A DNA stretch of 64,000 bases from Psammoneis japonica (lineage: Eukaryota): the NCBI GenBank assembly GCA_008632985.1, contig QPGO01000076.1, positions 62,001 through 126,000 of the forward strand. The letters are read 5' to 3'. The notes below the pieces were generated by a model. The model worked only from the letters and a program-made list of their open reading frames with translations. It was not told where the DNA came from and ran no database searches. Below, piece by piece: positions 4,030 through 60,660 of the stretch. A program made the translations under genes and the position numbers. How positions within the stretch are numbered: position 1 is the stretch's first letter; every line of letters begins with the position of its first letter.

Positions 4030-4495
4030 CTCAAGAACAGTCTGACAAGTTTCGAAAATGCACATGTTGTTGCAGGGAGATGCTCTGCAAGTCTTTGAGA
4101 ATGGAGCAATGAACATCGAAAACAAGGGTGCTGAGAGAGCCTTCCAAAAATGCCTGCATCATCTCTCCAATCATGTCTTTCAAAAGAGTGCGCTTCAGAA
4201 TCAGAAACGACACCCACGCCATGATCTTAAGAAGCCAGACTCCATGAAGATGAGAGAAATTGCTGCATGGGCTCAGGAGGTCAACAAAGACTTCAAGCAC
4301 TGTCCTCCCTTTGAGTCCAATCAGAAGCTGGATGGTGATGAGTTAAAGGATGTCATCTGCAACCTTGCACCTTGCAAATGGCACCATCAGTCAACCCTTC
4401 AAGGTTTTGAAATTTTGGATCACACCTTTGACAAGTTGGTTGAGTTTTTGGAATGTCTGGAGGCTGCAGAGGACATGTTTGATCAAATTCATGTC
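4030..4495 (+). mobile_element. Decayed Ty3/Gypsy gag fragment
   Basis: LLQGDALQVF...HVFQKSALQNQKRH...LKKPDSMKMRE...NQKLDGDEL...LQGFE...LVEFLECLE resembles stramenopile Gypsy gag. Expected Tyr positions read His or Cys. Confidence 0.7.
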
Positions 4496-7900: not shown

Positions 7901-8388
7901 CACAAAGTGAGTGGAAGTCAAAGAGCTGTCGATCCCGCCGAGTTGGTTGGCACAAGGCTGGGACAACAAACCAAAGGTGCCACAGCCCAAGATGCAGTTG
8001 TCAGAAGTGAGCAAGCAACAAGACAACAACAAAGACCATGAGGATGGAGGAGATGAGCCACAATGCCCCCCCAAAGAGAGGTCAGCACACTCAATTCAGA
8101 GCCAAACTTCTTGTGCGACTCACCTGCTCCTCCCCACACCTCTGGTTGCACACCACATCAAGCAAAATGTGATTTCCTTGTCGTGCCATCAAAACATGTT
8201 TTGGCTCTAAAATGTCGAGTGGATTCTGCCAGCTTGCCTGGCCTCACTTCCCCGAGACAAAATAAGAGCCTCACAAATCAAAAAATGGCAAGCCATGAGG
8301 AAAAATGACAAACATCCTGAAACGGCCCTGCCGTACATGCGGTCAGATCGTCCATTGCCGCTTTTATGACCTCATTCATCCTTTTACC

Positions 8389-19200: not shown

Positions 19201-19357
19201 TTCTCAAGGCAAGGATTCTGGACCCGTCTTTGTCAAGTTAGACATGAGTGCTGGTCACTTTTCCGCGTCGGATCGATACAAGTACTTGAAAGAGCTTGCC
19301 TTTGATTTCGCATTCTTGTTGGATCAGTTGGGATTGGTTGACACATTAACACAATAA
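16281..19357 (+). pseudogene. Oligopeptidase B duplicate, pseudogenised
   Basis: Near-identical to 8389-10949 including the intron. It has an early stop at 16481-16483, a 538-bp internal tandem duplication, and frameshifts near 18275, 18720, 18873 and 19045. Confidence 0.9.
17066..18141 (+). repeat. 538-bp internal tandem duplication within the oligopeptidase pseudogene
   Basis: atcgtcaagaatttggaaacggg occurs at 17066 and 17604. Junction is gactggacc|atcgtcaag. Confidence 0.93.
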
Positions 19358-32959: not shown

Positions 32960-33150
32960 ACGCATCACACTCAGCCAGAGCGAGGTGGGTTTATTGGACG
33001 CAAGATTGGAGGTGCGCACTGTCCGTCTCTTTAGCTCAACGACAGAACTTCACGTCTGCGGCTGCTTTTTAGAGTTTTTAATGCCACGGACAACTGGAGA
33101 GAGCAGGAACTAATGCACGCTTTTCACGCCACCGGAGACTGTTGTTTTTT
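32960..33150 (+). repeat. About 190-bp dispersed repeat, copy 1 (paralog 43562-43746)
   Basis: gacgcaagattggaggtgcgcactgtcc...gagactgttgtttttt is shared. Confidence 0.85.
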
Positions 33151-36100
33151 CTGCACCATTGAGGTGAGAACATGACAAGTTCTCAACTCTGGAGTTTTGC
33201 AGGGCTGGGTTCACAAGAAGGCTGGCACCCACTGAGCCAGTGTCAACCACACCAGCTGGTGAACACCATCTCTGATGTGGCATTTGGGAGCAGCAGGAAA
33301 GTCCTGCAGAGCAGTTCAAAATGCACAAGCCACTGACTCATGACCCACACCACTTGAATTTTGACTGGCCAGAGCGAGGAAATCCTGAGCAGGGTGGTTG
33401 CTGGATGTCTGGCGGGGCAACAATCTGGGAATGCATGCGCACACATGCATGACACTCCCACACCGCAGTGCAAATTTTTTGATTTCAATTTGAATTTCTT
33501 GCACACCACAAAGCAAGTCTTGGTTTTCACTTGAATTTTTTGTCGCCATGCCCCCCCAACAGAAAATTCAAATGTGACAAACACGCGGCCGCACAATGCT
33601 CTGGGTGCATTCTCACTTGTGATGCTTGGTCTCTTTTTGACGTGTGACAAATCACTTTCTGGTCAACCCCAAATTCACATCACAAGCAAACCATGTTTTG
33701 CTTGCAGTTCATGCTGTTCTTGATTTTGTGCTCAAAACACTCAACGCAATTTCTGTTGTCACCACTGCTGCGAGTTTGTGTTCTTGATTTTGTGCTGAAA
33801 GCACTCAATGCAATTTCTGTTGTCACCACTGCTGTGAGTTTGTCTCTGTGGTCATTCACTGCTTTCCACCAGCAAACATTGACACTCTGCACCCTGCATT
33901 GTTGTGAGGACCTCTCTGCTGTGTCTGTGTGTTGCCATCATCTTGACTCACTCCCCAGCCCATCTCTGTGGAATTGCTGTTGTTTGCAGCAGCTGCTTCT
34001 GAAGCCTCTTCAACTGTGCTTGCATCTGAGTTGTCACCTCCTGCTGCTTCCCCTTTGCTGTCACTCCAGGAAAGTTTTTGGAGCAGCCCACCCGCTCATT
34101 CTTTCCTTTTTCCCTCTTCCTTTTGTTGCCTTGCACCTCCTCTGACTTTTTTGTCTGCAGGCACTGAGCATCAACTCTGCCTTTTTTCTTTTTCTTATCT
34201 TCTACTGCACTGCACAGCTTGTTGTGTTGGTTGATTCCATCCTGGTTCCATCACACTTGGAGGGCACAGACTGCCTCTTGTTGCATCCATGTCTTTGTCC
34301 ACCTTGTGCTCCAGCTCCATTTTTCCATTGTTGTGTGGCTGCCTTGCAGCAGCTGTGATGCACAAGCCTGACAAAAGATTCCATGCTTGTGGTCAGCCAA
34401 TTGCTGACACCTTGGGTTGCCACCATCTCAAATTGTTCCATGCCAGCTGCCACAGAGCAGCAGTTGTCTGAGAACCAGAAGTGCATGCTTGGCAACTCAA
34501 TGCCCTTGTTGACTTCATCAATGAATTTCAGCCTGTTGTCTCTCACCATTTCTATGAGCAGCTCATGCATGGTCAAGAGCAGAAGGTCAGCAGCACTCCC
34601 CACTGCATTTTTCTGCCACCTGTTTGTGTGCACCAAGCACCTTCTTCCTCAAAACCTTGTTTCTGTTGTTTTGTTGTCAATTGTGTCTCTTCCTCACCTT
34701 CTCCTTGCTCAGTTCCCACCAAACTGTGCAGTCACCATTGGCCATGTTGAGGTGTCTGCAAAACCTTTTTCTGCATCTTGCTGCCAAAAGTCAGCTTTCT
34801 CTTGTCATCTGTCATGAACATTGTCTTTGGGCACACTGCTGTTGCAATGCAGTTGTTTGTTTGACTGTCAACAAACTTCCTTTTGGCTGCCTCTGAGCTG
34901 GCGACTGATGCCCCTGCAATGTGCGCATTGTGAGATCCCATCTCTGTTGTGTTGTGGGTGGTGACTGCAAGGAAATGCACAATTTGTGTTGGCAGCAATG
35001 CACACATCTCTCTTGCATTGTCCTTGCTGCAATGCGTGCACCTGATGAATCATTCTGTGCTGACATCTCCTCCCATGTGCCTCTGCTTTGCTGTTTTGTG
35101 CACCCAACATTCACCAACCACACCTGCCAGCACTTTGTTGGCCATCCTTTTTTTCTTCTGCTTCTCTCCTTTGAATGCCTGAAATTTTCAAATGTTTTTG
35201 AGGTTTGCATCAACACATGCATTGTTGCATTAAATTTGATTCTCCTGTCATTTCATGAGTTTGCCATTGTGTGTGCTGCTGCCTTTGTGCGCTTAATTTT
35301 TCAAACAGGGTGCCAGCAATTTAGCTAATTTGTGAGCACTTCAGTGAATTCAATCAGATTGTCAGCCCACAACTGAGGGGGCTGCAGCCACTTTCAATCC
35401 AAACTGCAAACTTCTCATTCAATTGGCATGCTGTCCAGGCACACATGCTTTTGCCCTTGCTCATTGCCTGCTCCTCCATTCTCTTCACCCCCTCCTCCTC
35501 CTTGTCCATTGCACCTGCACATCACCAGGTTCATCTGATTCTCCCCATTGTTGCATTTTGTTTGAATGGCAGTTGTTGCTGCTCTCTCCTGCCATTTCAC
35601 AAATCCACTTTTGCACGCACTGCTGCTTTTTGAATGCTGAGTTTTTCAATCAGGACACCAATTTGACCAATTTGCACACACTTTTGCAAATGCAATCAGA
35701 TTGTTGGCCCACAAGTGAGGGGGCTGCAGTCACTCCAATCTAAACTGCAAACTTCTCATTTTCAGTCTGAACGCTGTCCAGGCACCAGCACTTTTGCCCT
35801 TGCCCATCGCCTGCTCCTCCATTCTATCTGCCCCTTCCTCCTCCTCCATTGCAGCCACCTGCCCATCACCAGGTTCATCTGATTCTCCCCGCCATTGTTG
35901 CATTTTGCTTGAATGGCAGTTGTTGCTGTTCTCCTGCCATTTGACAAATGTGCCATTGCATGCACTGCTGCTTTTTGAATGCTGAGTTTTTCAATCAGGG
36001 CATCAATTTGACCAGTTTGCACGCACTTTTGCAAATGCAATCAGATTGTTGGCCCACAGCTGAGGGGGCTGCAGTCACTCCACTCCAAACTCCAAACTTC

Positions 36101-37925
36101 TCACTCAGTTGCCATGTTGTCCAGCCCCCCATGCTGTTGCCCTCACTCATCGTCTCCTCCTCTCCTCCGTCCTCTCTGCCCCTTCTTCCATTGCACCTGC
36201 CCATCACCGGGTTCATCCACCCCCCCTTGGCATCTCTTGGCCATGTGCGTCTGTCAATTCATTGCCTTAAAGACTGCAAATGTGTTGAGAAAAGGAGAGT
36301 TTGCAGGGCAGACAAGTTCTCAGGTGTGATGTGCAAGACCAGCTGGAAGGAAACAATTGCTGCGCATGAGGCAATTGTTCCAATGGCAATGGAAGGCACC
36401 ATGGTTGACACACGCGAGAAGCAGAGACAAGTTGTGAGTGCCACATGGCAAAAGCAACATGTGTGTCAATGTGCAAGATCACACCATGCCGGGCTTGCAT
36501 CAACAAGCAATTGACAATTTGAGACAAATCTCACAAAAAATGAGAGTGGACATTTTGTCAAGCTGGTGCGCATCTTGGGTTTTTGCACAACCAGATGGAG
36601 GTGGTGGCAGAAAGCCCTTGAATGGGTGGTGGGACCTTGCAACTCCGTCATCAGCAAGCCTCTGTGTGAGTGGGCTGACAACCAAGGCACAAAGCAGTTT
36701 TTTTTTGTGCATGAAAAAAGAGCACATTTGTGATTGCGTGCTGGATGACAGACAACACACTGGGGCGCCATGCCAACGTGACAACATTGATTGGCAGGAG
36801 AGACTGGCGACACCCCAGCCAACATGCAATGGACAAAATGTGCTGCAGCGGACATCACTCAAGAGGCAGAAGAGTCCACTGAGCCAACTCCAGCAAACCT
36901 TCAGAAGGCAATCAACAACTTTCATCTGAACATCAAATGGCCAGAGTTGAGGACTCTGAAAATGATGATGATGGGAAGGAGATTGCTCAGCAGGCAATCA
37001 CAAAAGGACAAACATTGTGACATGGGATTCTCCCTGCCTCAATGGAGGGGGCACTTTGGCTTGGACCATTTGCTGCTTGTGGGACAACCACAAAGTTGAG
37101 GGTGCTGACATTGCAAGAGGCAACCTGACTGATGTGAGCATTCTCATCATGCTGAGACAGTGGGTCAGCTGGCAGTGGCAGCAATGACGCCAGACATGTG
37201 CAGCCTGTGCTCAGCAGAGTTGTGCAGAGCCACACAACCACTGGATGTTAAAAATGATGACAGCGGGGAGGAGATCACCCACACAATCACAGAAGAGATG
37301 GCCATCACAAATTGAGGGAGATGATGTTTTGGGAGGCAACCCAGGACTGAGACAGCAGGTCAGCTGGTGTTGGTGGCAATGAGGTTGGCCACATGCAACT
37401 TGTGCAGAGCTGTGTGGGATGGTGACCAGGTGTCAAAAAATGCTGACAACCTTGAATGCGAGCTTGCAGCAAATTAAAAACCACATGATGCTGTCTCCAC
37501 AGCCCACCCTCATGGGAGGAAGACCATGGCACAGTGGACAAAGATTGGCATCAAGGGCCACTTGGATGACCGTGTTTCTCATGAGGACCTGAGTTGGGCA
37601 TCATCACAAATGAACATGGACGTGGACACCAAGGCAAAGAAGAGGCTTGCAGAAATGGCAGTCACACCTCATGAGCAATGGGTTGTGGGCAAGATGCAGA
37701 CTTTCTGGATCAGGGGGGCACAAGATGGTGCCAAGCTTGGCCAGCAACATCGGGAATGCGGTTGATGAAAAAAAAATAGCTCTGGACATGAGTTGACAAT
37801 GGGAAGCTCTCCCGCCCATCTCAGTGTCAGGGAGATTGACTGGGAATCTCAAGTCCAAGCCATGGGTGACCTCAAGCTCTCCAGGCAACGTTGGGTGGTG
37901 AAGCATGTTTCGCAGAACTGTGTGG
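33150..37925. mobile_element. TpA-depleted block containing decayed non-LTR retrotransposon (LINE) fragments
   Basis: On the + strand, 37530-37920 gives IKGHLDDRVSHEDLSWASSQMNMDVDTKAK and EIDWE...SRQRWVVKHVS, resembling the RNase H and downstream region of diatom LINEs. A probable opposite-strand LINE 3' fragment lies at about 34200-35300. Confidence 0.7.
35350..36110. repeat. Tandem duplication, period about 345 bp, about 2.2 copies
   Basis: aatcagattgt..gcccaca..tgagggggctgcag occurs at about 35352, 35694 and 36039. Confidence 0.9.
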
Positions 37926-41140: not shown

Positions 41141-42199
41141 TAGGGCCCTACTGTCATACCGGTAGAAATACGGCACTAAGAGCATCTTCGCCAGTGAGTC
41201 GTAAACATAAACCTATGTCCGTACGTCTTCCGATACGAATGAGATTCACAAAAAATCATCATTTTCGGTGGATCGTAAACATATTTTTTGCGCTAATAAC
41301 CTTTCGAATTTACGATTCATGAAAGTGAATCGCAAATCAGGCCTTGGATACGATCCACCTCCAAAATCGTAAACGAAAATCGTAAATTTCTGGTACAAAA
41401 AGGGTGTAGAAATCCTGTAGAAAGTGCGTGTCACCATGACGAAACGACAATCGACGCTTTCTTGATGAGAGGACCTTACAGAGGCCCAACAATTAAGACT
41501 TTGTCGTATCTTATGAACTTACATACGGCCGCATCGAGATATGGGAGGAGAACCGACATATGGGGGGTTTATGGGGTCAGAAGAGAATAAGGCATAAATC
41601 GTGTGATAACATTTCGCTTGTTTTCGCGATGTAGAATGACTTTCACAACATAGTAACACATAGACATATAATATGAATTATTCTCTATTGATAGACGTCG
41701 ACATATCTTTGAATAGACGGTGATTTGTGTCGTATATTGCGTTCAAAGCCGCCATGGCGTCATGTAAAATTCAACAAGTCCGTCCTACCATCAGTTAGTT
41801 ATTGATATACGTGTATGGAGTTGGTTGTTACCTCAACGTCTGCCCAACCATCGGCCGAATGTGAATACGATTGTGATCGACTGAAAATGATGGTCGCGTG
41901 CAGAATCGTAAACTTATACGGGGCAGTCTGTTCGCTTGTCCTTTTAGGTTATGTTCCTATGTTTATGTTTATGTTTACGACTCACTGGCGAAGATGCTCT
42001 AAAACACACTGTGCACACAGTGCCTGTGACACAGCACATCTGTGTTGTGCAACAGAGATCTAATGTGCTCAAGTGTACCTACGTGGCAGAATTTTGGATG
42101 TGCATTTATGATGTGACTGACGTGGAGCAGAGCTGTCGAACACTTGCTTGAGATTCCAATGTCCCCTGCTCACGCACACGAACCCACCAGTGGTCTGTG

Positions 42200-42660
42200 T
42201 GCATTGAAACAATGCTTTGGTGATGGCAACACATGCAGTGCATTGTGCAGTCTCCCAGGCTCTCAAGATCTCTCCAGGAAAAATGGTTTTTCATCAAGAT
42301 GTGATTTTAGATCCACCTGTCACATCATGGATTTGGTTGGTGCCCAATGAAGACCGCCAACAAGCTCTCATTGATGCCAACCTTCAACGTGCAAATGCCA
42401 AGCCCTGGTGCTGCAATCATCACACAACAGGTGGGGGCAAGTTCTTGTCACATCCATTGACCCTGCCAAATTAGAGACATGGGCTCATGGCCCTTGTCCT
42501 GTCATTCAAGTGCAAGCCAACAGCACAATCGTCATCCAACAAGCTCCACATGTTGTTGAGAGCGTCAGTGTCAGACCTGCAGCGCCACCTTGGGTTTCAG
42601 GTTTTTTTTTAATGTCTTGGTTTCCCTCTTGTCCTTTTGATTTTGTTCATTGGAAATTTT
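42200..42660 (+). mobile_element. Decayed Gypsy integrase C-terminal fragment related to the element at 55131-60508
   Basis: CAVSQALKISPGKMVFHQDVILD...LIDANLQRANAK...IDPAKLETWAHGPCPVIQV aligns with CAVSRALKISPGAMVFQRDMILD...IVNANLRRANAK...IDPTKLEPRAHGPHPVVQA. Confidence 0.88.
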
Positions 42661-43561
42661 GAAATTTTGGGTTTCTCTGACATGATTCTTGCTTTACGTG
42701 AATTTTCCATGCGTTTCCATGTGGAATTTTGCATCTTTCATTGCTGATGTGGAGCGAAATTGTTGAGGTCACTTGTGACTCCAGCTGGCTCCAACACTCA
42801 CTGGTTTCCATTTTCTGGAATCCACGCAAACCAGGCCAACAATTTGTTTTGCACAGCAATCTGTGGAAGTGTGTGACAAAAAAGTCATTCTAAGTTTCTG
42901 TTGCACAGAAACTCAAAGCACCTTCAGCATGCATTTCAGGGAGAACAGCAAGTTGTTGTGCTCATTGCCCAATCTCTCACCTCTTTTTTCATCTCTGCTG
43001 CTGGCATGTCACCATGACAAGGGCGAAGGACTGAGACAACAAGAGGGTTGTTTTTGCTCTCTTTTGTCATGTTTCCAAGTCTCATTTGGCGACGCTGAGC
43101 CCAGCTGCAGCTTCCACTCACACAGCAGAGCATTGGGACAAGGCTTGAGGTGGCTCTCAGGAGAAAAGCTGTTGCTGACTTGGAGCCAGCTGGCAGAGCT
43201 GCAGTTGGCAGAGAAGCACTTGAGAAGTCATCAAAGTCTGCACTGCATTGGCCCCACTCAAGGCACTGTGCTGTGCAGCTGAGCTGATTGCCAGGCCAGG
43301 CTTGAAGCTGGGGTGGTTCCTGGAGAGAGCAGAAGATGGAAGCTGCAGACCCTGGTGTGCATGGGAAGCTTTTGGAGCTTGGCATGCTCTTGGGGTGGGG
43401 GGCACATCAATGAGAGAAGACTGGGTGAACAAGTCTCTGCTGGAGGCCATGAAGTTCATGATTATGATGGCTCACTTTCCCAGGTGTGCACCACAAAACT
43501 GTTGTCAAAAATTCATGTGCACACACAAAGAACATCATTTTGTCTTGGTGCGTAAACTGGC

Positions 43562-44985: not shown

Positions 44986-45159
44986 CTCTGCAGAACTGTC
45001 AACACTGTATGTATTACAGCAGCGAGTGATCGAAGAAACGAACAGTCGATCAACTTGATGACAGGACCAGAATCTATCTCATCTTCCACGCATCACAAAA
45101 AAATATTCGATTTCGCGCCACAAATTGAAATCTGACGTCATCGCAGGCAGGAAGGACGG

Positions 45160-48100
45160 ACGTGCAGGCAGTCATGTGTGGATTTGTGGCACCAAAAAAA
45201 TTTGCAGCATCAGCATTTCCCACCAGCAATTCCACCCGGGGATGTCAGACTGACAGATGGGATCAGTCAAACTTCATGCTTTTCTGCCTTGCCATGCTCT
45301 TGTCTCCAGGCAGAGGGCTGCAATCTTCTTGTTCATCAACCTCATTTCTGCTGCTTAAAAGATGGAGAAGGCAAAAGCTCAAAAACATGAGATTTCACAC
45401 ACACACTCACTTTGGGCAACAAAAAATGAGCGTTGTTTCACAAGGGAACCCCGCTTCACCACCTTTGTGTTTGTGACTGTTTGCCAGACACATTCCCACA
45501 CCAACAGAGCCAGCTCACATCATTTCGCCATTGCGCCGCAACAATGCCTCAAGAATGCCCCAAATGTTTCTCTGCTCCAAAGTCCACAGCTGCGTGCATC
45601 AAATGAAAGAGCAATGCAAAGAGAGCAGCCACAAGGTCCAGTGAGCAAGCTGGCTGCAACTTGGGGTCAGGTTTGTTCTTCTCACCAACTTGCAACAACC
45701 AGGCTCAAGAGCTGCCCACCTTTCACAAATGAGGGCAAATTGGCATGCCCTGGCTTGCTCTCCAGATCTGGCCCATGTTTTGCTGGCCACACTTGGCCAT
45801 CACATCTGTGTGTGGCTGTCCAGACAACATGGCAGCTGTCATGAGAAAACACTGATGCCCCCATGTTGTGCTTCCATGAAAGACATTGGCGGTCTCTTTC
45901 TTTTCACCAGAGCGCTGGGAACACTTGATTTTCTGGTTGCTGGGCAGCTCTGCAGAGAGCCTTGTTCTTAGATTCCCAACATTGAAGTGCAGCTGCAGTG
46001 GTGCAACAAAAGGGTGTCCTCAAGCTCACACAGAAAAACCAAGCAAAAAACCCCACAGCAAGACAGAGCAAACATCACCGCAGGAAGCTCTTTGTTGGGG
46101 CATGCAATGCTTGCCACACAGGCCTGTTCCAGCTCCAGGTGATGCGCGCCACAGGTTCAATCTGATTTTTGCATTTGGCACATTGAACTTTTTCAAAATC
46201 CATTTTTTGCCAAATCAAAGGGCAAGTGCACACTTCACACATGCATTTTTGGGTGTGCACTTGCCTTTCGATTTTTGAAACGATCGCAAAATTGAACGAG
46301 TTTAATGTGCCAAACTGTGCAGAAAATCGGCCTCTCGCATGACAGATTTCTCATCACAACACCCCCCTCCCCAAGGGGGTGCAGCACCCACTCAAACATG
46401 AGGTGCCCCAGCTCCCAGCTGGCAGGCAACACCCTTCCAGCACTGGAGTGCCATCAGCTGCCATCATGCTCTCCATCTGGAAAAATGCAGTTTGCTCTCA
46501 CTCAGAAATGAAGCTTGCTTGACAAAAATCCTGTGTTCTTGTTGAGCACTTGGCTTCTCCTTCAATGCAAATGAGTGGGTCTTTGCAGTGGACTGGGCCA
46601 TTGAAGTGGAAAGCCAGAGTTGAGTTGAAATGTGGTCTCACAGTGCATGAGCTGACAATTTTTGCACATGTCCGCAATGCTGTCATTTTGAATTTTGTGC
46701 ACACAAACAAAAAAATTGGCAAAGCAGGGGACAACAATGGGTGAAACATGTTGCTCATTTTTGTGCACACATGATCTCATCAATTGTTGTTTTGTTTGTT
46801 GGCTGGAGCATGCCAACAATTTGATTTGTTCACTTGCCAGTTGGCGCACATTTTGCAATTTTGGTCTCCAATGATGTTTGCTCTCTGCCCTGGCAACATT
46901 TGACATTTGGCTCAATGCCGCCACTTCACCACCTTCACTCCACTCTCAGTCCTTTGTCACTCAAGCTGCAACCCCATTGTCTCTTGCGGCCAGCCCTCTT
47001 GCATCTCAGCATTGCATCTTGCTGCAATCTTCATGTTTCCAAGTTCCAAGAGAGAGTCAGTTTTGTGACAGCTTCTCATTTTGAGGCACCATGGTTGCAA
47101 TTGCTGGCAGAAGAAGGCAGCAGAGAAGTTGTCAGTTTGGCATGTTGTGCTTGGCAAGTGTGGCTCAACTTTGCTTTTGCAGTTCACCTGCGTGGCACGT
47201 CATTGCTGCGTTGTGTTTCTCTCTTCATTTGCTGTTTTTGCTGGCTTGCCCAAGTTGCAAGAAACAAGAAACTTTGCAAAAGCACAAGTTTGAGCTTGTT
47301 GTTTTTTGCAAGCACTGTCTTCTCCCATGTCACACATTTTTCTGACTTCTTGCCTTTCCTGTAGATTTTCTTTGCTGGTGTGCACAGAGTCATGGGTTTT
47401 GTTGGTGCCCTCCTGCAATGTCAACATTGCTTGGGTGCTGCTTGGGTGCATCCCATGTTTTTGTCATTTTTTTGCCATGGAGCCAAGCCAGCCAGCCTGG
47501 TGGGGGAATCTCATTGCCTGCATCATTTTGAAAGTTGCAGCACATCTGTTTGCAAAGAAGGCCAGTGTCTCAATTCTGTGATCTTTGCCAGCTTTTGTCA
47601 AGATGGAAATTTTTGCTTTTGTGTGGGAGTGCACACCCAGTTTTTTTGTGTCCATGGGGCTGCTGCTGCTGCTGTGGCTGATTTTTTGCAGCTGATCCAC
47701 ACATGCGCACAACAACCTTTGTTGCTGTTGTGAGATGATGCCATGGTTGAAACTTGCTGGCAGGAGGTCAGAAGAGGTCATGGAGCTGGTTGTGTGCAGG
47801 CCGTTCTTGTCGTGGACAAGGAGCTGGTTGAGCAAGAGGTTGGCTGGGCAGCACACAGCTGCAGCGGTGCCAGGCATGTGCCTGCACAAAGCCAGAGCAG
47901 CAGTCTCCCAGAGACATTCAGGCACAGCAGCTGCAGCACCTCACACAGCTTTCCTCCTCCCTGGCAAGTGACTGCCTTTGCCAGCATGGTTGCGTGCTGT
48001 TGTGCACTGGCCCCATGTTGCCTTGTTGTCCCCAACAAGTCAGTGCAGACTTGAGCTTCCCAACTCAAGAGCAAAGCAGCCCCATGACTGCAGCAGCACC

Positions 48101-51100
48101 AGAAACCAACCCAACAAGCAACAGCAGGCTGAGGGCACTGATGGTCTCAGGCAGATCCCGCACCAGCATGGCACAGTTGTGCACCCTGTCATGTCCTTCC
48201 AGTCAGAAGCACACTTCAAACTCCCCCAACTCCAGAATGAAAGGAACCATGATGGTGCCAGCCAACCTGAAAACAGCAAGCTGGTGAGGGCTTTGGTGGT
48301 CTCTGGAGGATCTTGAGTGGCGCTCTGTTCCACCAGGGTGAAATTTGGGAAAGCCTTGATGCTGCAAGTCCAACAGGAAGCCGACAGCTTCCAGCACTGT
48401 TGTGGCATTGTGCAATTGGTGTCAATGCATTTTTGCACTTGTGCTGCAATGCCGTGGCCATTTGACCGGCAAATCCTTGCCACAACAATCTAACTCTGTC
48501 CAGCTCAGCATGGTTGCATGCTGTTGTGCACTGGCCCAATGTTGCCTTGTTGTCCCCAACAAGTCAGTGCAGACTTGAGCTTCCCAACTCAAGAGCAAAG
48601 CAGCCCCATGACTGCAGCAACACCTGAAACCAACCCAAAACAAGCAACAGCAGGCTGAGGGCACTGATGGTCTCTGGGGCAGATCCCACGCCAGCATGGC
48701 ACAGTTGTGCACCCTGTCATGTCCTTCTAGTCAGAAGCACATTTCAAACTCCCAACTCCAGAGTGAAGGAACCCATGATGGTGCCATCCAACCTGAGACA
48801 GCAAGCTGAGGGCTTTGGCAGTCACTGGAGGATCTCAAATGACACTGCAATGGCCATGGTTGAGTGGCACAAGGCCCACTTGTGTGGCTGTGGTCTCATG
48901 TCACCTTGACCGCCCCCACCACTGGGGGGGCAGAGCAGACTTCCAAACTCCACAGTGAAAGGGCAACAACAAGCTGAGGGCACTGGCACCGGTGTCTGGG
49001 CAGCCCCAGGCAACACTTTGAAACTGTGGCCAACAAGCATTGCACAGGCAAGGTTGACCTTGTGACATTGCAACCCCTTGTCACCTTGCCCCCAACAGCA
49101 GCAGACTTGAGTTTTCAAACTCTGCAGTGACTCATTCAAAGGTCCAATTGCTGAACAGCAGTGGGCAAACAAAACTTGAAAAAAAGCAGCCCACTGAGAC
49201 TGCCAGAGATGCACAGAGTTGTGTGGCAAAATGCCATGAGGAGAATGGAGAAATTCACAGTGGCATTTTTGAGAAACAAGGTTCTTTTTGTTGGAAGCAA
49301 TGGATGAAGAACTGCAGTGGGTGGGCAAACCATCCTCCATTTGTTCATTCTGGTCTGAAGTTCCAGCAAGACTGGATCTCATGGGAGGATTGGCTGGGGT
49401 GTCATGAGTTGGAAATGTGAAAAAGATCTTTGATGTTGCATGTCACCCAATTTTTGAAGGCTGAGAGCAATTTGTCAATCTTGTTTCCTGCCGCAAGTTG
49501 TTGTGAGCAAGTCTTTGTGTCAAATCTTGTTGCTGATGCAGCTGCTGCAGTGTGCTGCAAATCATCAACTCTGCCAGCCTTTGCACAAAACCTCCCAGCA
49601 TCAAATGTGTTTTCTGTCTCCAAAGCCTTGATTGTTGCAGCAGCCACTCATGCAGCCCAGGCCCTGGAGCCAGGTGCACAGAGAGTGCTTGTCCTTCTCT
49701 CTGACAAACAAATTAGCACCCTGCACTTCAACAAGCACCACAGCATCTCTGAACAACCTTCTGCAGTTTTCTCCAAGAGACAGCAACAGCACACTTGCAG
49801 ATCAACAAGGAAGAGCTGCACACAGACAGTGGATGCCATTTGGTTTTTGCCTGCAGAGAAATCCTCTGCCACAACCAAAAACAGAGTGTGCCAGTGTGAA
49901 AGCAAAGACCAAAACAAAAACACAAAAAATCAAATCACAGCCTCTTGTCAGGAGCTCCAATGACTTGGCACTGCAAACGGGCACTTTGTTTGTGTTTCTG
50001 GCACATTTTTTGTCAATCAGCAGCTCAAAAGTGGCTCTGAATGAAGCACAGATTGACCCACTTTGTGATCATGGGGGTTGATGCTGGCATCTGGCATTTG
50101 TCAAATTGAGATGTGATGACAAGGTCAGGTTGTTTGACAAGCATTGTTGTGGCAACAGGAAGCATGGGTGACAACAGGGGTCAAGTGACAATGTGACAAA
50201 TTGTGGCAGCTGCTTGCTGCTTGACAGTTTGAACAGGGCTCTGGGCTGGAGCGCAAGAAGTTGACATTGGGCAAAAGGCAAGGATTCAAGTTTGCAGTTG
50301 TGGTGTCTGTCAAAAGAGGCTTGGTTCAATGAGGAGGTGTTTTGAGAGGAGGAGATTCTCTCCATTGTGTCAGACATGTGACAAGGACACCGGCGCAACA
50401 TTGTCATGCAAGCAGCAGATCAGCAGCTGAGTTGTGTGGTGGTGCCCCATGCAACAAAGAGGTGAATTCAGCAGAAACACAAAGAAATGCAATGAGCAAT
50501 TGAGCTGAAGCTCTTCCAAACAAATGAGTCAACTCTGAACAAGATGCTTGGCCACAAAACAAAAGCCAGAAAAAATTGACTGCAGTCAGCTCAAATGACA
50601 ACTTTGGGGCAATGCCAGATTTGCGGCTGAGAAAATGTGTCAGCGTCAAAATGTGTTTTGGAGCCCAAATGACAGTGACCACCTCTTGGCTGGTTTTTGA
50701 AAAATTGTGGCACCTGTGCAGAGTGCAATTGCTTCCACATGGAGGAGAAAACAAAGCAGCATGTCTGTTCCATCCACAAAACAAGTTGGAGATCGTTCTT
50801 TGTTGCACTGTGCTGCAAATGGTTGAGATCGCCTTGCCGGCATGTTCCACCACCAAGCACATCTTCCATGCTGTCCTCGACATGCTTGAGGATATTCTTC
50901 ATGAAGTGGTCCATGCCTTGAGTCTGTGCAATGTCAAAGCACAGTTGTCAGAAATGACAACAATGGGTGCAAATCAAAACACAGACAACAGCAATGTCAG
51001 TGCGAACACATGCAACCACAAGGGAGCTCACTTGATTTACAACATCAGCTCAGTCCATCTCAGCCAACAGTTTCTCCAACAGCCAACATTTCTTGATGAT

Positions 51101-51950
51101 GCTCAAACTGTTTGTTTTGCACACTCTTGGCATCATCCGTCAAACAGTGAGAAAAAGCACACGCGCGTGCTTCAAAACACGCCTGCACTCCACCAATTGT
51201 TCATTGGCCGTCTTGAGAAATTCCACATGTTGGTTCACTTGGCATCTAAATTGGATTCTTGCAACAAATCCATGCATTGTTCTGTTTCACGCAACTGCTT
51301 CATGGCAAAGGCTTTGCGCTTTGGCGCGCACACAATGGCGCTTGCGGCAGCGCAGCAGACACCGACCCAACTCTCGCTTGGCCCAGGCCGCATCCGATGG
51401 ATCGTTGGGGCAAACTTGTTGTGCTTGCGCAGCAATGTAGACACCCATGTTGGCACCGCATGGTCCTTCCAATCACCAGCACACATTCAATGACATTCGT
51501 GCCGACAAGGCTGGCTTGCTGACGTGGCAGTTTTTTGAATCAAATCCTTCGCCACCATGCGTGAAAGCTCATTTGCACTTTGAGCATGTTGGCGCCGTTC
51601 CACAGCAGAGCAGCAGTCACAATGAGGATGAAATGGCAAAAGGATGTTGTTTGCCATGACACGTGGACGTTTCATCATGGCAATCTCTCCGAAAAAATGA
51701 GAAATGAGAAATGATGGAGGGTGCGCGATCCGATCATGTTGAAGTTGAAGAACAGCTCAATGAGGCAAAACACTCCCATTGTGGAAAGGACTGCAAGACG
51801 CTCATGACTTAAGTCAGTCACGAACGCTCGTCGTCACTCATTTTTTGTGCCGCCGACAAAAAAAATCTTTCGTGCGATTTGTTGCATTTTCAAAATTCGC
51901 CAGCATCATTCTCACTTCCCACTCAACACCAATCAATCAAGTTGCCATAA
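45160..51950. other. TpA- and CpG-depleted block of unidentified decayed repeats
   Basis: Near-absence of TA over about 6.8 kb, with only spurious Cys/His-rich ORFs. CpG is partly retained towards the right edge (51.2-51.9 kb). Confidence 0.85.
47980..48835. repeat. Direct duplication of about 340 bp, period about 523 bp
   Basis: cagcatggttgc.tgctgttgtgcactggccc.atgttgccttgttgtccccaacaagtcagtgcagac occurs at about 47982 and 48506. Confidence 0.92.
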
Positions 51951-54815: not shown

Positions 54816-55130
54816 AGATGTTGTTCGTGGTTGAGTTGAATCATGGTTTGTATTTTTGTGTCGACGTGTTGTAAAACATAGTGTCCGTCGACAAGCAATC
54901 TCATGATGGGAAGTGGAAAGAATATTCGCGACCAAACGGCTCGCGAAGCAAAAAAATGAGGTGAAAGTGGTGGCGGGAATTCTTGAGAACAAGGCGTAGA
55001 AATGTACCAGAAGATCCGTAGAGCTACGTGTTTTTGTCACGTAGCCGCTCAGTACACAAAAGCTGCATGAAAGATCGCGCGTGACTCATCACTCGTGAAG
55101 CGCCTCCGTGACCCGTGACTGAGCGCTGAG

Positions 55131-55292
55131 TGCAAGGTTTAACGAGATAAAGACTTCAGTGATAACAAAATTGTGAGCGAAAGACCGAGGTAACGAGGGT
55201 CGCTTTCAGCGAAGCCCGTTACAACGGCTTCCGTTATATCTAATAGGTTCATTAATACTATATATCAGAAAAATAAGGTGCGAGACACTGCA
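55131..55292 (-). repeat. 3' LTR (162 bp)
   Basis: Identical to 60347-60508 by eye. Preceded on the minus strand by PPT GGAAGGGAAGAG (55293-55304). Confidence 0.95.
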
Positions 55293-55395
55293 CTCTTCCC
55301 TTCCATGATTCGAGTGTCGCGGGACTCAAAAAATTTAAATTCCAATGGATGAGGATAGAAGGGAAACCCAAATGTTGGGGAGAAAACCCTTAACC

Positions 55396-58300
55396 TCAGG
55401 TACGATACGGGACGACGCGACGAATATTCAATCGTTCCGTTACATGAGGTGCACGTTGGACCGCAATCGTGCCGTTGGCGTGTGCTTGAACGACAGGATG
55501 TGGACCGTGAGCTCGTGGCTCGAGCTTGGTTGGGTCGATGGCCTTGAGTAGAACGTGTCCACCAACTTGAAAATCGTAGGACCGGCGTTTAGCGTTGGCT
55601 CGACGGAGATTCGCATTGACAATCGCTTGTCGGTGTTCTTGAATGGCAGCAAGATCGGCCAGGACCGGCAAGTCAAGAATCATGTCACGTTGAAAAACCA
55701 TGGCACCGGGTGAAATCTTGAGAGCACGAGAAACCGCACATCGCATTGCATGCATGGCGGTTGCCAATGCATTGTCCACTAGTTGATTGGCCTGCTCAAC
55801 ATTCTGTGGAGGACAAACATGAAGCAAAGTGCGCAAGACATTTCCAACAGTTTGATGCATGCGTTCGCATGCCGCATTGGCTTGTGGGTTTCGCGACGTG
55901 GTTGGAGCGTCTTCCACTCCTGCTCGTTGCAGCAACAATTGAAAGTCCTCTCCAATGAATTCTCCACCATTGTCATGGATGCACCGGTTCGGACGAGGAC
56001 AACGAGACAACCAACAATTTTCAAATTGTTGAGCAATGTGAGATGAGGTTTTGTTGTCGATGCGAATAAGTTCAGTCACATTCGAAACGGTGTCAACACA
56101 AGTCAAAGCGTTGAATTCGATTTCATGGTTTTGAATTTCAATTTTCCAGGGACCAATGAGGTCAACCGCAACTTCTGTCCATGGCAACAAAGGCGCTTCC
56201 CGTTCAGGCAGGTCCCCATGTCCAGGGCCCAAAGTTTTCAAACGTTGACAATTGGCACAATGAAATCTTTCACAGGATTGACGAAGGGCAGGATGACAGA
56301 AATGTGCGCCAATGGTGGAATGCATTCGGTGCACTCCTGCATGTCCCAAAATTCTGTGACACCATCGCATGACATCATGCAGCAACGCCGTTGGAACACA
56401 AATTTTCCACGCAGTCGGAGGATCATTCGGTCGAGCACGACAACAAATTGCAGGACGCTGATTCACATGTTCCACCATGAAGCGTTCTGGACATTGTTGT
56501 CGCATGTTGTTCAGCTCCACGTCGATGAATTGGTGTTCTTGAATTCGTTGCACAGTTGCAGGGTTTTGCATTTCCTCGAGAGAAGGACAGTTCAAAAATG
56601 ATTCACACAATTCGGGGTCATCCACGACGGAAGAGTAAAATGGAGATGGTTCTTCACGACGACAGGAAAAACAAGACACACTGTTTTGGTCGTCCAGTTC
56701 TTCTTCATGCGGCAGCATGGCAGGGTTGATGGTTTTAAAATCAATCAGTTTGCCCTTGTTAGGAGCACACTTCCCTTCCGCAGGAGGGTCCACACGCGGC
56801 AATCTTGAAAAACAATCCGCCAAGAGATTGTCTTTGCCATCAACGCATTCAAAAGTTGGGGCAAAATCTTCCAAGAAGAGTCGCCACCTAAGAACTCGTT
56901 GAGAATTGAGCGTGCGAAAGGTGAGATTTTTATGATCCGTAAAAACAGTGCAGTCAGCTCCAAATGACATGCTTCGGAATTCTTTGAAACACATTGCCAC
57001 CGCCAACAATTCTTTGTCAATCGCAGAGCAGTTCTGTTGTGCTGCGCTGAGTTTTCGGGACCAGCAAGCTGCTGGTTTCCCGTCTTGCACAATTACGGCT
57101 CCCATCTGACAGTCTGAAGAGTCAGCACAAACATGGAATGGCTTGTTGTGATTCGGGCAGACCCAAAGGGTGTCGTCCAGCATCAAGGTTTTCATGTCTT
57201 CAAAGGCTCGTTGACATTCAGGAGTCCATTCCAACTTGCTCTTGCCTGTTAACTTCGTGAGTGGAGCGAGCACGTGTGAACGACGAGGCCACATGTTGCG
57301 ATGACATGTCACTGCACCGACAAACGATCGTAGTTGCGTCACAGTTTTAGGTGGTTGCATTCGTAGCACCGCTTCCACTTTCTTCTTCCACGGTCGGACT
57401 CCTGCAGGCGTGAGCCAATGGCCCAAAAAATCCGTCTCTTGGACACACCATTCACACTTGAGTGGGTTAATTTTTAGATTGTTCTCTTCTAGTCTGGACA
57501 ACAGCTCATCGAGTCGACGCATGTGAGTGTCAAACGAATCATCAAATTGAGCAATGTCATCAATGTAAGTTTCAACATCGATTCCTTTTACCACTTTTTC
57601 AATGATGGCTTGAGCAATGTCAGGAGAGGTTTTCAAACCCATGGCCAATCGACAACATCGAAATTTTCCAAACGGAGCAACAACAGCACACAAATCCTTG
57701 GATTCTTCGTCAAGCTCGACATGACAATAAAACACAGTGAGGTCCAACTTGGTCAAGCACTTGCATCCCGAGCGTCGGTGAATGACGTCTTGAACAATCG
57801 GCAGAGGGTGGACCTTTCGTTTGAGTGCCTTGTTCAACTCTCGAAAATCGGACACCCATCGAACTCGTCCATCCTTTTTGGGAGTTGCAAAAGTTCTGGC
57901 TGCCCATTCAGTTGGTCCCACTGGCTCTAATGCGCCAATGTCACATGGATGTTGCAATTCTTTCTTAAAAACGGCTTCATCCCTCTTGGGTGCTTCGCAA
58001 GCCTTAGAATGGAAGGGAACAGCGTTGGGATCAACTTCCAAGTGAACAGTCTCATGCGGACATTTGCCAAGCGTTCCATCAAAGAGGGTTTCATGTTTTT
58101 CAAGCACCGCCTGCAGCTCATCACGTTGCTCTTGAGTCAAGTGAGTTTGAGCTTGCGCCACTTTCGCGGATGGCACTTTCTCGCATTTGGCGTCCATCAT
58201 AAAAGATTGTCCGAAGGCTCCCTCATCGTCTTCGTCCTCTCCGTCGTCTTCCAGTGTATCCAACCAATTCTGAACTGAGTTCCAATGATTGGATTGCTTC

Positions 58301-58650
58301 ATTGGGATCGACGTTTCCAACCACTTTGTTGTTCCAAATCGAAAATCAAGTGCGATTCCGGCTTTCGACAAAAAGTCTTGTCCCAAAATTAAATCACACT
58401 TGCATGGGGCATCAAAAACTTGAGCCGCAATGCTGTCGACTTGTTTTGACTTGTCAAATTCTGGCAATGTCAAGTCCTTCATAACAACGTATCGGGAGGA
58501 TTCATGTCATCCGGCTGCCGTCTGAAAGCTCAACCGTCCTTCATCGTTCATGGTTGGATTCGCTCCCTTCGGCAAAACTCGAGAATGAACAAGAGTGTCA
58601 GTGCCTCCTGAATCCAATGGCACTCGTGACACTCGCTTGCTCTCTTGATT
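55396..58650 (-). CDS. Gypsy pol (PR-RT-RNaseH-IN), hypermutated
   Basis: 1028-aa open frame at 55396-58482 with PKKDGRVRWVSDFRELNK, YIDD, TDHKNL, VAVDLIGP, HDNGGEF and NPQAN motifs. The protease start at 58500-58650 is in shifted frames. Confidence 0.92.
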
Positions 58651-58891
58651 TTTGAATGGCACGCGCCGCCATCAACGTCGTTGGCACCACATTCAATGGT
58701 TTGGGAGTCACAGTTTTAGGGGTTGGCACAGCGCACTCCAAAACGCCGCCCAATTTTTCTTCATTCACAGCATGAGATTCCATCAGGTCTCCCACATTGT
58801 CACCAACATTAAAACACATGTTTTCTTCACGATCACACGAAACATAAAAAGATTGAGCGACACGCTCTGACTCGGGCACTTCCGTCCCTTG

Positions 58892-60136
58892 TCAATTACG
58901 CCAACTTCGTTGGCCTTGATGGGTGCGACCGTTCTGATCGCATCCATTTCCACCTCGCATCTCACGAGGCCCTCCTTGATCAAAATGGTGCGACTCCAAT
59001 TGCCAGCCACCAGGAGGAGCTGCTCCAGCCGGATTTCCATAGCCTTGGGTGTCACCGTTGGCTTGGGTGCCGTTTTGATTTTGGCAATAGGATCCATTCC
59101 CTTGAGAATTCTGGGAGTTGTTACAATTGCCGTAACCTCGGCCTCCACATCCTCCTTGATTGCCACAATTGCCACGTCCTCGACCTTGGAAGTTGCTGCG
59201 ACCGCCTCGACCTTGGGGTCCTCTGCCTTGGCAGTTTCCTCGGCCTCCACCACGACCTCCGCTACGACCACCACGGTCGGACCTCGGTCGACAGTTTTGG
59301 CTTTCTGGATTCAAAGTGCAATCCTTCCACTTGTGGTCATGATTCGCACGCACCGGGCATCTAAATTCTGGATCCGTTCTGCCACCATTGCCACGAGAGT
59401 GTCTTGAAGCTTGAGACGAAGCACCATTGCTTTTCCTCTTCTTGTCCTGCTTCTTGTTGCCACTCTTGTCAGCAAAAGATTTCTCGTTGTTCATGTGGCC
59501 AATGATCTCAGCGAGAGCATCGTTCGCTGTCGCTCGTCCTGCTCGAGTGTGCATCTCACGCCACGGACGAGGAAAGCCATCGAACATCATCTTTTTCTTC
59601 TGAGCTTCGTTGACTTGAGGAGCATTTCCTGGAAGTTTGTTGGAGTGCCGAATCAAGGTTTCCATGCGATCTGCACGCGCCTGCACTTCAGATTTGAATG
59701 GTTTTTTCAAAGTTAGGAAACATTCAATCATCGTATCACGCGCTTCATTGTCACAATAAGACAAGTAAAAACGATTGATTTCCTGATCAAAACGCTCGAC
59801 AGTTTTATCGGCATCGTCAATTGCATTGGTCAAGTTCGCCCACTTGTCCTCTGCAGCATCCGCAAGCACTTCCTCGAAATTTTCGAACAATTCCTCGCCA
59901 GTGGTGTACTCCAATTTCACAGCGATTTTACGAAAACGATCCTCAACGAATGACAATGCTTCAATACCATGAGTGCCATCAAAACGCGGACACTTTTTTG
60001 TACGAGTGCCACCGTCATCATGCGATTGGGTCAATTTCACTTCCTCCAAGTCAGAATGCTCAAATTTAGCTTCATAGCTAATGCAAGGCTCCTTCAACGA
60101 TTCACTCATCATGAAAAAGGGAATACAATTGTTCAA
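58892..60136 (-). CDS. Gypsy gag
   Basis: 414-aa ORF just inside the 5' LTR, with a CPVR..HDHKWKDC zinc-knuckle-like motif and a Gly/Arg-rich tail. Confidence 0.85.
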   Translation of the reverse strand: MNNCIPFFMMSESLKEPCISYEAKFEHSDLEEVKLTQSHDDGGTRTKKCPRFDGTHGIEALSFVEDRFRKIAVKLEYTTGEELFENFEEVLADAAEDKWANLTNAIDDADKTVERFDQEINRFYLSYCDNEARDTMIECFLTLKKPFKSEVQARADRMETLIRHSNKLPGNAPQVNEAQKKKMMFDGFPRPWREMHTRAGRATANDALAEIIGHMNNEKSFADKSGNKKQDKKRKSNGASSQASRHSRGNGGRTDPEFRCPVRANHDHKWKDCTLNPESQNCRPRSDRGGRSGGRGGGRGNCQGRGPQGRGGRSNFQGRGRGNCGNQGGCGGRGYGNCNNSQNSQGNGSYCQNQNGTQANGDTQGYGNPAGAAPPGGWQLESHHFDQGGPREMRGGNGCDQNGRTHQGQRSWRN

Positions 60137-60346
60137 TAGTCCTCTCCAGGGACTCTACCTTTGACTCCAAATGATGCACTCGGCTCGCCAAATTCTGTTC
60201 GTGTCGTTTACGTTGTTGCACTTGTTTCTGGTGCTCAATAGCCCAAACTGCTGCTCTTGCGCGTAGTTCTCTTTTCTCACGTTTAGTCAATTTGTTTGTA
60301 TTATTCCTAGTCTCCATCCAGTTCTTTAAATCGACTGTAATTACAG

Positions 60347-60508
60347 TGCAAGGTTTAACGAGATAAAGACTTCAGTGATAACAAAATTGTGAGCGAAAGA
60401 CCGAGGTAACGAGGGTCGCTTTCAGCGAAGCCCGTTACAACGGCTTCCGTTATATCTAATAGGTTCATTAATACTATATATCAGAAAAATAAGGTGCGAG
60501 ACACTGCA
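60347..60508 (-). repeat. 5' LTR (162 bp)
   Basis: Identical to 55131-55292. Confidence 0.95.
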
Positions 60509-60660
60509 CTGTGCGCTGTGAGACACGGGGGTTGGAGCAAAGTGTGTTGCTCAACAAGAGGTCGCGAAGCTGTTTGAACAACGAAATCCCTGCCAAGTCA
60601 TCTTATATACACGGCTATAGCAAAGGGGCAAGCGGTGAAAACGCCACCACAAGCTGCCTC

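Follow-up and report, generated by a model that had tools for sequence, protein, structure and literature searches.

The window analysed here, a stretch of 64,000 nt from contig QPGO01000076.1 of the diatom Psammoneis japonica, contains a retrotransposon with long terminal repeats (LTRs) and the Ty3/gypsy order of domains at 55131–60508. All coordinates are positions in the window; the element is on the minus strand, and thus its left LTR is the 3′ LTR. The interior of the element has lost most of its TpA dinucleotides (TA) to TG and CA, and the ends have retained them. It is well supported that this is TpA hypermutation of the type described for the chlorarachniophyte Bigelowiella natans, here in a diatom retrotransposon family, affecting both strands, with a preference for TAY (Y, pyrimidine; R, purine) and sparing the ends.

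The 3′ LTR (55131–55292, minus strand) and the 5′ LTR (60347–60508, minus strand) have a length of 162 bp each, begin with TG, end with CA, and are 100% identical. The flanking 5-mers, CTGAG on the left (55126–55130) and CTGTG on the right (60509–60513), may represent the copies of a target-site duplication and match at four of five positions; they lie within a short 7-mer repeat, and the haplotype with the empty site (see below) differs by insertions or deletions (indels). A polypurine tract, GGAAGGGAAGAG on the element strand (55293–55304), abuts the 3′ LTR and was assigned by position and composition only. Inspection of the sequence after the 5′ LTR revealed no tRNA-type TGG primer site (no tRNA match test was made). 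A perfect 12-nt palindrome, CTGTAATTACAG (60335–60346, minus strand), is situated directly inside the 5′ LTR at the expected position of the primer-binding site.

A small upstream open reading frame (ORF0; 60102–60317, minus strand) has 71 codons, overlaps the start of gag in another frame, and encodes a basic stretch followed by heptad leucines. Its match to Pfam bZIP_2 is weak (E = 0.017, 15.7 bits) and below the cut-off of 22.3 bits. The gag frame taken from the list of open reading frames (58892–60112, minus strand) has 406 codons beginning with MMSESL and an Arg/Gly-rich C-terminal part, and no Pfam family matched it. A DSGG motif found in the translation (58603–58614, minus strand), which we take to be the active site of an aspartic protease, precedes the reverse transcriptase (RT). 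The pol frame, recognised by Pfam matches and by its relatives, comprises 1036 codons from stop to stop (55396–58506, minus strand). It encodes the RT (57415–57882, residues 209–364; RVT_1, 5e-21) with the motif YIDD (57556–57567, from the translation), the RNase H (56863–57228, residues 427–548; RT_RNaseH_2, 1e-22), the integrase zinc domain (56236–56397, residues 704–757; Integrase_H2C2, 9e-6), and the integrase core (55885–56142, residues 789–874; rve, 2e-6). The DSGG motif and the Pfam matches give the order protease, RT, RNase H, and integrase, i.e. that of Ty3/gypsy elements. Two lesions interrupt the protease-pol region, a +1 frameshift within the protease part (58644–58652, minus strand), at which all relatives aligned by tblastn switch frame, and an in-frame TGA stop codon (58507–58509, minus strand) seen in the translation and evaluated against the depth of the family below. 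The pol protein is 62–63% identical to the best of 689 relatives. In a search of a protein collection for close copies the best matches had 62–65% identity, proteins of similar length and shorter ones alike, and sister copies of the element were not found. The named relatives of pol are from Cylindrotheca closterium, Nitzschia inconspicua, and Thalassiosira.

We estimated the ratios of observed to expected TA along the element. Each LTR has a ratio of 1.09 (15 TAs), the interior has 0.21 (72 TAs in 5054 bp), and the value is as low as 0.14 between 55700 and 59700. The comparison of TA with the sum of TG and CA yields 15:15 for one LTR and 72:854 for the interior (Fisher p = 4e-9). In bins of 200 bp, proceeding inward from the left end, the ratios are 0.94 (the bin containing the LTR), 0.58, 0.26, and 0.09, and from the right end they are 1.09 (again with the LTR), 0.72, 0.36, 0.38, and 0.07. 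Thus, an edge of about 300–600 bp retains TA at both ends of the element. The 3′ end zone (55293–55600, minus strand) consists of the 3′ untranslated region and the last ~70 codons of pol and has 10 TAs, among them those of Tyr in RSYD and VPYR. The 5′ end zone (59714–60346, minus strand), with 25 TAs, spans the leader, ORF0, and the first ~130 codons of gag. Between them lies a depleted core (55601–59713, minus strand) with 37 TAs in 4113 bp.

A sequence-only reading of this DNA had described identical, TA-rich LTRs and a nearly saturated interior. The former description was accurate, including a quoted TA-rich string that occurs in both LTRs. The latter was somewhat overstated; about 70–80% of the TAs expected for the interior are lost, but 37 remain in the core, and older blocks elsewhere in the window reach a ratio of 0.04. 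All Tyr-containing strings that it had cited are present, i.e. ISYE, LEYT, and FYLSY in gag and RSYD, VPYR, and YIDD in pol. The Tyr density of gag is usual only in the first ~140 codons.

For comparison, we determined the CpG ratios, which are 0.94 for the interior and 0.88 for the core from 55700 to 59700, the median of the relatives being 0.96. A decay of the type caused by CpG methylation was therefore not found in the interior of the element, and within the window it is restricted to the older blocks (0.23).

To establish the direction of change, the element was compared with its relatives. The TA ratio of pol is 0.16 and thus outside the range of 78 related metagenomic elements (0.40–1.08, median 0.70). 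Terminal repeats were present at 27 of the 78 related loci, and the median ratios of repeats and interiors do not differ (0.78 and 0.74, respectively). Pol contains 0.6% Tyr (6 in 1037 positions), 4.4% Cys, and 4.1% His, compared to medians of 3.6%, 1.8%, and 3.0% for 120 related proteins, none of which has less than 2.6% Tyr. Among the 78 related loci the lowest Tyr content is 1.9%, in a partial frame of 589 residues, and the next value is 2.6%. Tyr is found in at least 60% of 60 relatives at 25 alignment columns; in this copy, 17 of these columns are occupied by Cys, 5 by His, 1 by Phe, and 2 by Tyr. Other conserved residues were kept, i.e. Trp at 14 of 14 columns, Cys at 9 of 9, His at 15 of 16, and Asp at 34 of 37. 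The six Val→Ala changes all use the codon GCA, as expected for GTA→GCA (p = 4e-4), and 12 of 18 A→G changes at the first codon position (Ile→Val, Thr→Ala, and Met→Val) have T as the last base of the preceding codon (p = 0.002). These comparisons indicate that the loss of TA is a directional mutation to TG and CA and does not reflect native composition. A native avoidance of TA by the family is incompatible with the Tyr→Cys/His pattern and with the TA ratios of at least 0.40 in all 78 relatives. No stop codon can arise from an A→G or T→C change, which explains why the frames have stayed open.

Both strands are affected. Changes of TA to TG on the sense strand (Tyr→Cys and others) are accompanied by changes of TA to CA (Tyr→His 5, Val→Ala 6, Leu→Pro 1, and Leu→Ser 1), and a confinement to one strand, as is typical of ADAR- or APOBEC-type editing, was not observed. 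How often TA has survived, compared to the relatives, varies with the bases on either side, with values of 0.10 for RTAY, 0.15 for RTAR, 0.19 for YTAY, and 0.42 for YTAR. As much YTGY was gained (+15.6 per kb) as YTAY was lost (−14.9 per kb). In the three large TA-poor blocks of the window (see below), 28 of 47 surviving TAs are YTAR, compared to 200 of 1382 in ordinary sequence (p = 5e-12), and in the core of the element the fraction is 16 of 37; the survivors in blocks and core are mostly TTAA, CTAA, and TTAG. Because most surviving TAs of the blocks are YTAR, the preferred target looks like TAY on either strand, which suggests that a pyrimidine must follow the A on the attacked strand. All 15 TAs of the LTR have been kept, and 12 of these 15 are in contexts that are lost elsewhere, i.e. 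not YTAR.

An excess of Cys over His could be read as strand bias and as a sign of an RNA step. This idea was dropped; the value of 17:5 is close to the total that the TAY rule gives for the Tyr codons, and survival is similar on both strands. A symmetric TAY rule applies to 12 YTAY and 10 RTAY Tyr codons, and the splits of the two classes, 9:3 and 8:2, deviate from the rule. A consistent TGY/RCA polarity was not found in the old blocks of the window.

The copy family was characterised with 1744 contigs of one sample (run X1) that were aligned to the window; contig depth does not equal copy number. By identity to the window, 345 contigs have at least 99%, 409 have 95–99%, 507 have 90–95%, and 483 have <90%. 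Within the element the summed depth of the contigs is 1130–4638 per bin, compared to 49–89 in the flanks. The family is thus a diverse, high-copy family. A total of 645 places are variable (531 transitions and 114 transversions), and the site-level results given here and below cover 40 of the 645, the selection rule being unstated. Of the listed rows, 39 are within the element and represent 34 sites. The largest class is TA-type changes (15 of the 34 sites), which together with the CpG ratio of 0.94 in the interior supports the proposal that TA changes have been far more frequent than others. At seven of these sites the majority of the family has TA and this copy TG or CA; at four sites TG in this copy stands against CA in the rest, or vice versa, with at least 90% of the depth having the other outcome; and at four sites this copy retains TA while 89–95% of the depth has CA or TG. 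The remaining sites comprise 5 of CpG type and 14 others, including three transversions. The letter of this copy is represented by 0–311 depth units at the majority-TA sites and at those with discordant outcomes. Minority losses of TA among the listed places affect 10 of 47 target sites in the core, but only 1 of 66 in the end zones and LTRs (p = 6e-4). Both this distribution and the 200-bp bins bear out, for this one element, the earlier claim that the effect fades a few hundred bases from the ends.

Several differences are shared among copies. At 58649 the family is divided 57:43 by a single letter; 1092 of 2555 depth units (43%) lack it, and 57% carry the +1 frameshift. At residue 402, a Tyr column conserved in 60 of 60 relatives, other copies have Cys where this copy has His. 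In the 5′ LTR this copy has T at 60355, compared to C in 89% of the family depth; T is found in 11% of the depth and in both LTRs of this copy, and because these identical LTRs carry the same letter, the variant predates the insertion. The shared frameshift, the shared derived TA changes, and the LTR variant in 11% of the depth show that damaged masters were copied within the family. The suggestion that an already mutated copy had been mobilised in trans is thus directly supported for the family by its high copy number, the frameshift at 58649, and the shared derived TA states; in this copy itself, the damage may have arisen before or after insertion. The stop codon at 58507–58509 is, in contrast, carried by about one copy's depth. 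At 58509, 97% of the family depth has G, resulting in CGA, and the stop is a CpG→TpG change. A single contig with a depth of 794, i.e. all of the local depth, has nine extra letters after 55318 in the 3′ untranslated region, and the family thus varies by a small indel near the polypurine tract.

A contig with a flank-like depth of 49.3 joins 55029 to 60508 without the element, and therefore the insertion is polymorphic in the sample. In this contig 25 other letters replace 55030–55130, and the target is located in a repeat of the 7-mer CTGWGCG, which is not the same in the form with and the form without the element; therefore, indels distinguish the two haplotypes at this site. In the left flank both read sets differ from the window in 100% of the depth at 54737 (one letter omitted) and at 54919 (A>C), reflecting either a different haplotype or residual assembly errors.

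TA-poor sequence is not restricted to the element. Three large intergenic blocks at 1–8200, 33112–37776, and 45105–51809 (19.6 kb) have ratios of 0.04 for TA and 0.23 for CpG, and smaller blocks are located at about 12455–13744 and 42107–43553. The TA-poor blocks contain 1–7 TAs per kb, their TG and CA are about 1.8-fold above expectation, and their edges are sharp, within about 100–400 bp of gene frames. The 32.4 kb of gene-bearing sequence have a TA ratio of 0.61, so that in this one window the depletion is confined to DNA of a mobile or foreign type and the host genes are ordinary. Judged by composition, the TA-poor blocks are probably old, fully hypermutated mobile DNA that has decayed further by methylation.

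With TAA and TAG lost, both strands of the ~28 kb of TA-poor blocks together contain 62 frames with a minimum of 110 codons, and gene finders would over-call genes there. A Pfam scan of these 62 frames gave no credible match (the value for Tsc35, E = 0.006, was below the cut-off), and two of the longest look like chance frames. When 40 relatives were compared to the window with tblastn, only the element and a fragment at 42208–42587 (plus strand) matched. The fragment is a truncated older relative of the element that contains the last ~125 codons of pol with 55% identity. It is TA-poor, as are the 870 bp downstream of it with three TAs, and it exhibits CpG decay of the Arg→Gln/Trp type as well as Cys at a position where the young copy has His and the relatives have Tyr.

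The window also contains a duplicated gene for a prolyl oligopeptidase (8389–10952 and 16284–19351), the copies of which are ~8 kb apart and 94–95% identical over 2.5 kb; the second copy has an internal repeat of 539 bp. Of 82 mismatches 11 are of TA type, the TA levels of both copies are ordinary, and a signature of hypermutation was not found. This argues, for the one pair in the window, against duplication as the trigger. A foreign insert present in one copy only was not identified in the window. A neighbouring ATPase gene of 819 codons has its named best matches in Attheya, Cylindrotheca, Seminavis, Pseudo-nitzschia, and Nitzschia, with about 50% identity.

The explanation that we favour, with a probability of about 0.5, is that most of the damage was inherited and that the lineage was mobilised in trans. 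The element would then be a defective member of a diatom Ty3/gypsy family with many copies, and it would have been inserted recently, at a site that is still polymorphic. The identical LTRs, the interior CpG ratio of 0.94, and the empty-site contig with its depth of 49.3 are signs of its youth. Hypermutation directed at transposons would convert TpA to TpG or CpA, with TAY preferred on either strand, and the enzyme may be, as the foremost guess, an adenine deaminase that acts at T-A; we infer the action at the DNA level, for which Bigelowiella provides a precedent, the enzyme, and the reason for the escape of the ends. Damaged copies would still be transcribed and mobilised by proteins supplied in trans, so that the damage would be inherited and accumulate along lineages, and reverse transcription would provide each new copy with two identical LTRs. 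The use of LTR identity as a timer of the damage, as in the sequence-only reading, fails, because reverse transcription makes both LTRs from one RNA and their identity is uninformative on the time at which the interior was damaged. We lean towards the view that most of the damage of this copy predates its insertion, and we infer its share.

Two causes may contribute to the escape of the ends. Mainly, the process appears to affect the body of the element and not its edges. As a secondary cause, copies with damaged cis-acting ends may leave no descendants. Selection on cis-acting ends was considered as the sole cause and found to be insufficient, since all 15 LTR TAs are kept although 12 of them are susceptible. 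The sparing of the ends is real and seems too complete for selection alone. Some mechanistic sparing of the edges is needed, because of the 15 retained LTR TAs and the distribution of minority losses between core (10/47) and ends (1/66), and if it is granted, damage after insertion becomes a live alternative.

Several points weigh against predominantly inherited damage. The share of the ~170 lost TAs that is common by descent cannot be derived from 40 of 645 places, and a site-specific process can produce shared states by parallel hits. Selection on cis-acting sites alone would hardly lead to LTRs that keep nearly all of their TAs, and if the ends are spared mechanistically, damage that occurred entirely after insertion explains this copy equally well. 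A parent copy with the same interior was not identified among the contigs of one sample, with 40 of the 645 places listed. Depth in contigs does not translate into copy number, and X1 may be the very sample from which the window was assembled. The strand on which the chemistry occurs and the enzyme are unreadable from sequence; T→C changes via a modified thymine would look alike.

It is possible, but less probable than inherited damage, that a normal, TA-rich copy was inserted and then hypermutated in place faster than any mutation arose in its LTRs, with the process confined to the body, e.g. by heterochromatin that fades over two to three nucleosomes, so that LTRs and edges would be spared for long. 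Vegetative lines of Bigelowiella acquire the signature in place, with a rate of about 6e-7 per site and generation, ~1000-fold above background; were the rate similar here, the interior could lose its TAs well before either 162-bp LTR receives an ordinary change. It would fit that CpG is intact with about 80% of the TAs gone, that the listed minority losses shun the ends and all LTR TAs in susceptible contexts are kept, and that several TG or CA states are present at about one copy's depth (remainders of 0–100, compared to 49–89 in the flanks). The older blocks, as well as the fragment at 42208–42587 with its 870 bp downstream, are TA-free up to sharp edges, as if the ends were eventually reached. 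However, the shared indel and the derived TA states show that damaged masters were copied, and an undamaged parent is neither required nor seen. At the four sites at which at least 90% of the depth has the alternative outcome, descent fits better than independent hits, and a young copy would have to rank among the most mutated ones of the family, with hits at sites where ~90% of the depth keeps TA. In addition, the edge gradient is known from one element. A comparison of private and shared changes between copies, which had been proposed to decide the matter, is confounded, because the process is site-specific and partly deterministic in its outcome, so that independent copies converge.

With respect to targeting, the sequence-only reading had offered guidance by chromatin or by pairing. 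Guidance by chromatin is possible. Guidance by pairing is unlikely, since the 2.5-kb gene duplicate with 94–95% identity was unaffected and one Bigelowiella target is single-copy. A wider proposal, which we consider tentative and less probable than inherited damage, is that diatoms, and perhaps more of the SAR group (Stramenopiles, Alveolata, Rhizaria), possess a vegetative defence guided by chromatin domains that rewrites TAY in the bodies of newly silenced elements. A DNA enzyme would then ruin the Tyr codons of a new insertion before its LTRs diverge and would stop a few nucleosomes from the borders. Such a defence would be the functional counterpart of fungal repeat-induced point mutation (RIP), with opposite chemistry and without the need for a second copy.

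Editing of the genomic RNA and/or the single-stranded cDNA in the particle by an APOBEC3- or ADAR-like enzyme, so that copies are born damaged, is unlikely. Identical LTRs would come free in this case, and editing of LTR elements prior to integration is known in vertebrates (according to the accessible text of PMC4866542). The excess of Tyr→Cys over Tyr→His (17:5, p = 0.017 against 1:1) would fit editing of the sense RNA, and TG on the sense strand has risen more than CA (ratios of 1.59 and 1.26, compared to medians of 1.23 and 1.12, respectively). However, the T→C changes at TA on the sense strand (the six of six GCA codons, the five Tyr→His, and others) are impossible by RNA editing alone, and targets present only on the antisense strand (sense RTAR) were lost as fully as those present only on the sense strand (survival 0.15 and 0.19, respectively). 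The value of 17:5 also matches the total of the symmetric TAY rule with its 12 YTAY and 10 RTAY codons, although the class splits of 9:3 and 8:2 do not. The RNA contains U3, R, and U5, and yet none of them is edited. In HIV, the gradient of single-strand cDNA exposure to APOBEC3G reportedly peaks just upstream of the polypurine tract; an analogous peak would be expected here, but this region is spared. Furthermore, the old blocks are TA-free including their edges, and the Bigelowiella process acts on integrated, silent DNA.

An artefact, i.e. systematic base-calling errors at modified TpA in an unpolished long-read assembly that short reads anchored in the unique flanks corrected at the ends only, is very improbable. 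In its favour, the end zones have about the length of a paired-end insert, the differences at 54737 and 54919 from both read sets hint at residual assembly errors, and X1 contains only 0.54 of the sampled 31-mers. However, nearly all of ~170 errors should show TA at ~100% of the depth, and only 7 of the 39 best-supported rows in the element are majority-TA, with 65–311 depth units for the letter of the window, 345 of the 1744 contigs are at least 99% alike, and other copies have Cys and not His at residue 402.

The footprint points to a little-known genome defence. Hypermutation of foreign DNA at TpA only has been described once before, in a chlorarachniophyte preprint from 2026, and a literature search for TpA hypermutation in diatoms found no report. 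If the same process operates in a diatom, it would not be the curiosity of one alga but common among marine primary producers of a major group. The diatom case adds three mechanistic handles, i.e. the third-base preference for TAY, the action on both strands, and the sparing of the ends. It also provides a cheap diagnostic from sequence, consisting of a TA ratio near zero, YTAR survivors, Tyr→Cys/His changes in pol, and frames that are open in each of the six phases. Standard tools would annotate such dead copies as young and intact, given their long open reading frames and identical LTRs, and dating by LTR identity is silent on their mutational load.

Among the known systems, the diatom Ty3/gypsy elements GyDi (accessible text of PMC2806351) and metagenomic relatives have the same domain order and 45–63% identity in pol, but the Tyr residues of the relatives are not depleted. 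Non-autonomous LTR elements such as large retrotransposon derivatives (LARD) and terminal-repeat retrotransposons in miniature (TRIM) also decay in the interior while copies spread, and the frameshift in 57% of the depth fits this comparison. In experiments with mini-Ty1, only the LTRs and a few hundred adjacent bases were reportedly needed in cis. In contrast to these, the interior has its full length here, the frames are open, and the decay is of one mutation type.

Fungal RIP is likewise a defence that mutates repeated mobile DNA by transitions at one dinucleotide, produces a dinucleotide footprint, and can outpace ordinary divergence. However, RIP converts C to T at CpA and creates TpA, whereas here the opposite was found, a loss of TpA and a gain of CpA and TpG. 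RIP is triggered by duplication, and here the gene duplicate with 94–95% identity is untouched. According to the accessible text of PMC9998398, the diatom DNMT4 is related to the RIP enzyme RID.

Editing by APOBEC3 and ADAR shares with the present case context-specific deamination and full-length hypermutated LTR elements with matching LTRs. These enzymes act on one strand of a replication intermediate, whereas both strands are affected here and editing is absent from the LTRs. The metazoan enzyme ADAR prefers G after the edited A, which is opposite to the TAY preference observed here. It also prefers U or T before the edited A, as stated in the Bigelowiella preprint (10.64898/2026.01.13.699255).

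The closest counterpart is Bigelowiella itself. In mutation-accumulation lines of B. natans, according to the accessible text of the preprint, two integrated viral regions mutate ~1000-fold faster than the rest of the genome, nearly only by A→G and T→C and always at TpA, giving TpG and CpA (10.64898/2026.01.13.699255). The changes occurred in some lines only, and one of the targets is silent and present as a single copy. Reverse transcriptase and DDE domains are over-represented among the coding sequences poor in TpA, and an ADAT2-like deaminase was proposed as the enzyme (Mettrop et al., bioRxiv 10.64898/2026.01.13.699255). The same text, as far as it is accessible, contains no mention of a third-base preference, target edges, LTRs, or diatoms. 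The two cases differ in that Bigelowiella is a rhizarian with two viral inserts, and the present case concerns an LTR retrotransposon family of a diatom; change was observed de novo in the Bigelowiella lines, whereas it was deduced by comparison here. The depletion in Bigelowiella is mild (Rho TpA of 0.45 in the region derived from a nucleocytoplasmic large DNA virus, NCLDV), compared to 0.14 in the core and 0.04 in the older blocks of the window. The two have in common A→G and T→C changes at TpA (here 17 Cys and 5 His in Tyr columns, six of six GCA codons, 12 of 18 first-position changes, and raised TG and CA), the confinement to foreign DNA in an otherwise ordinary genome, and a rate far above that of the background.

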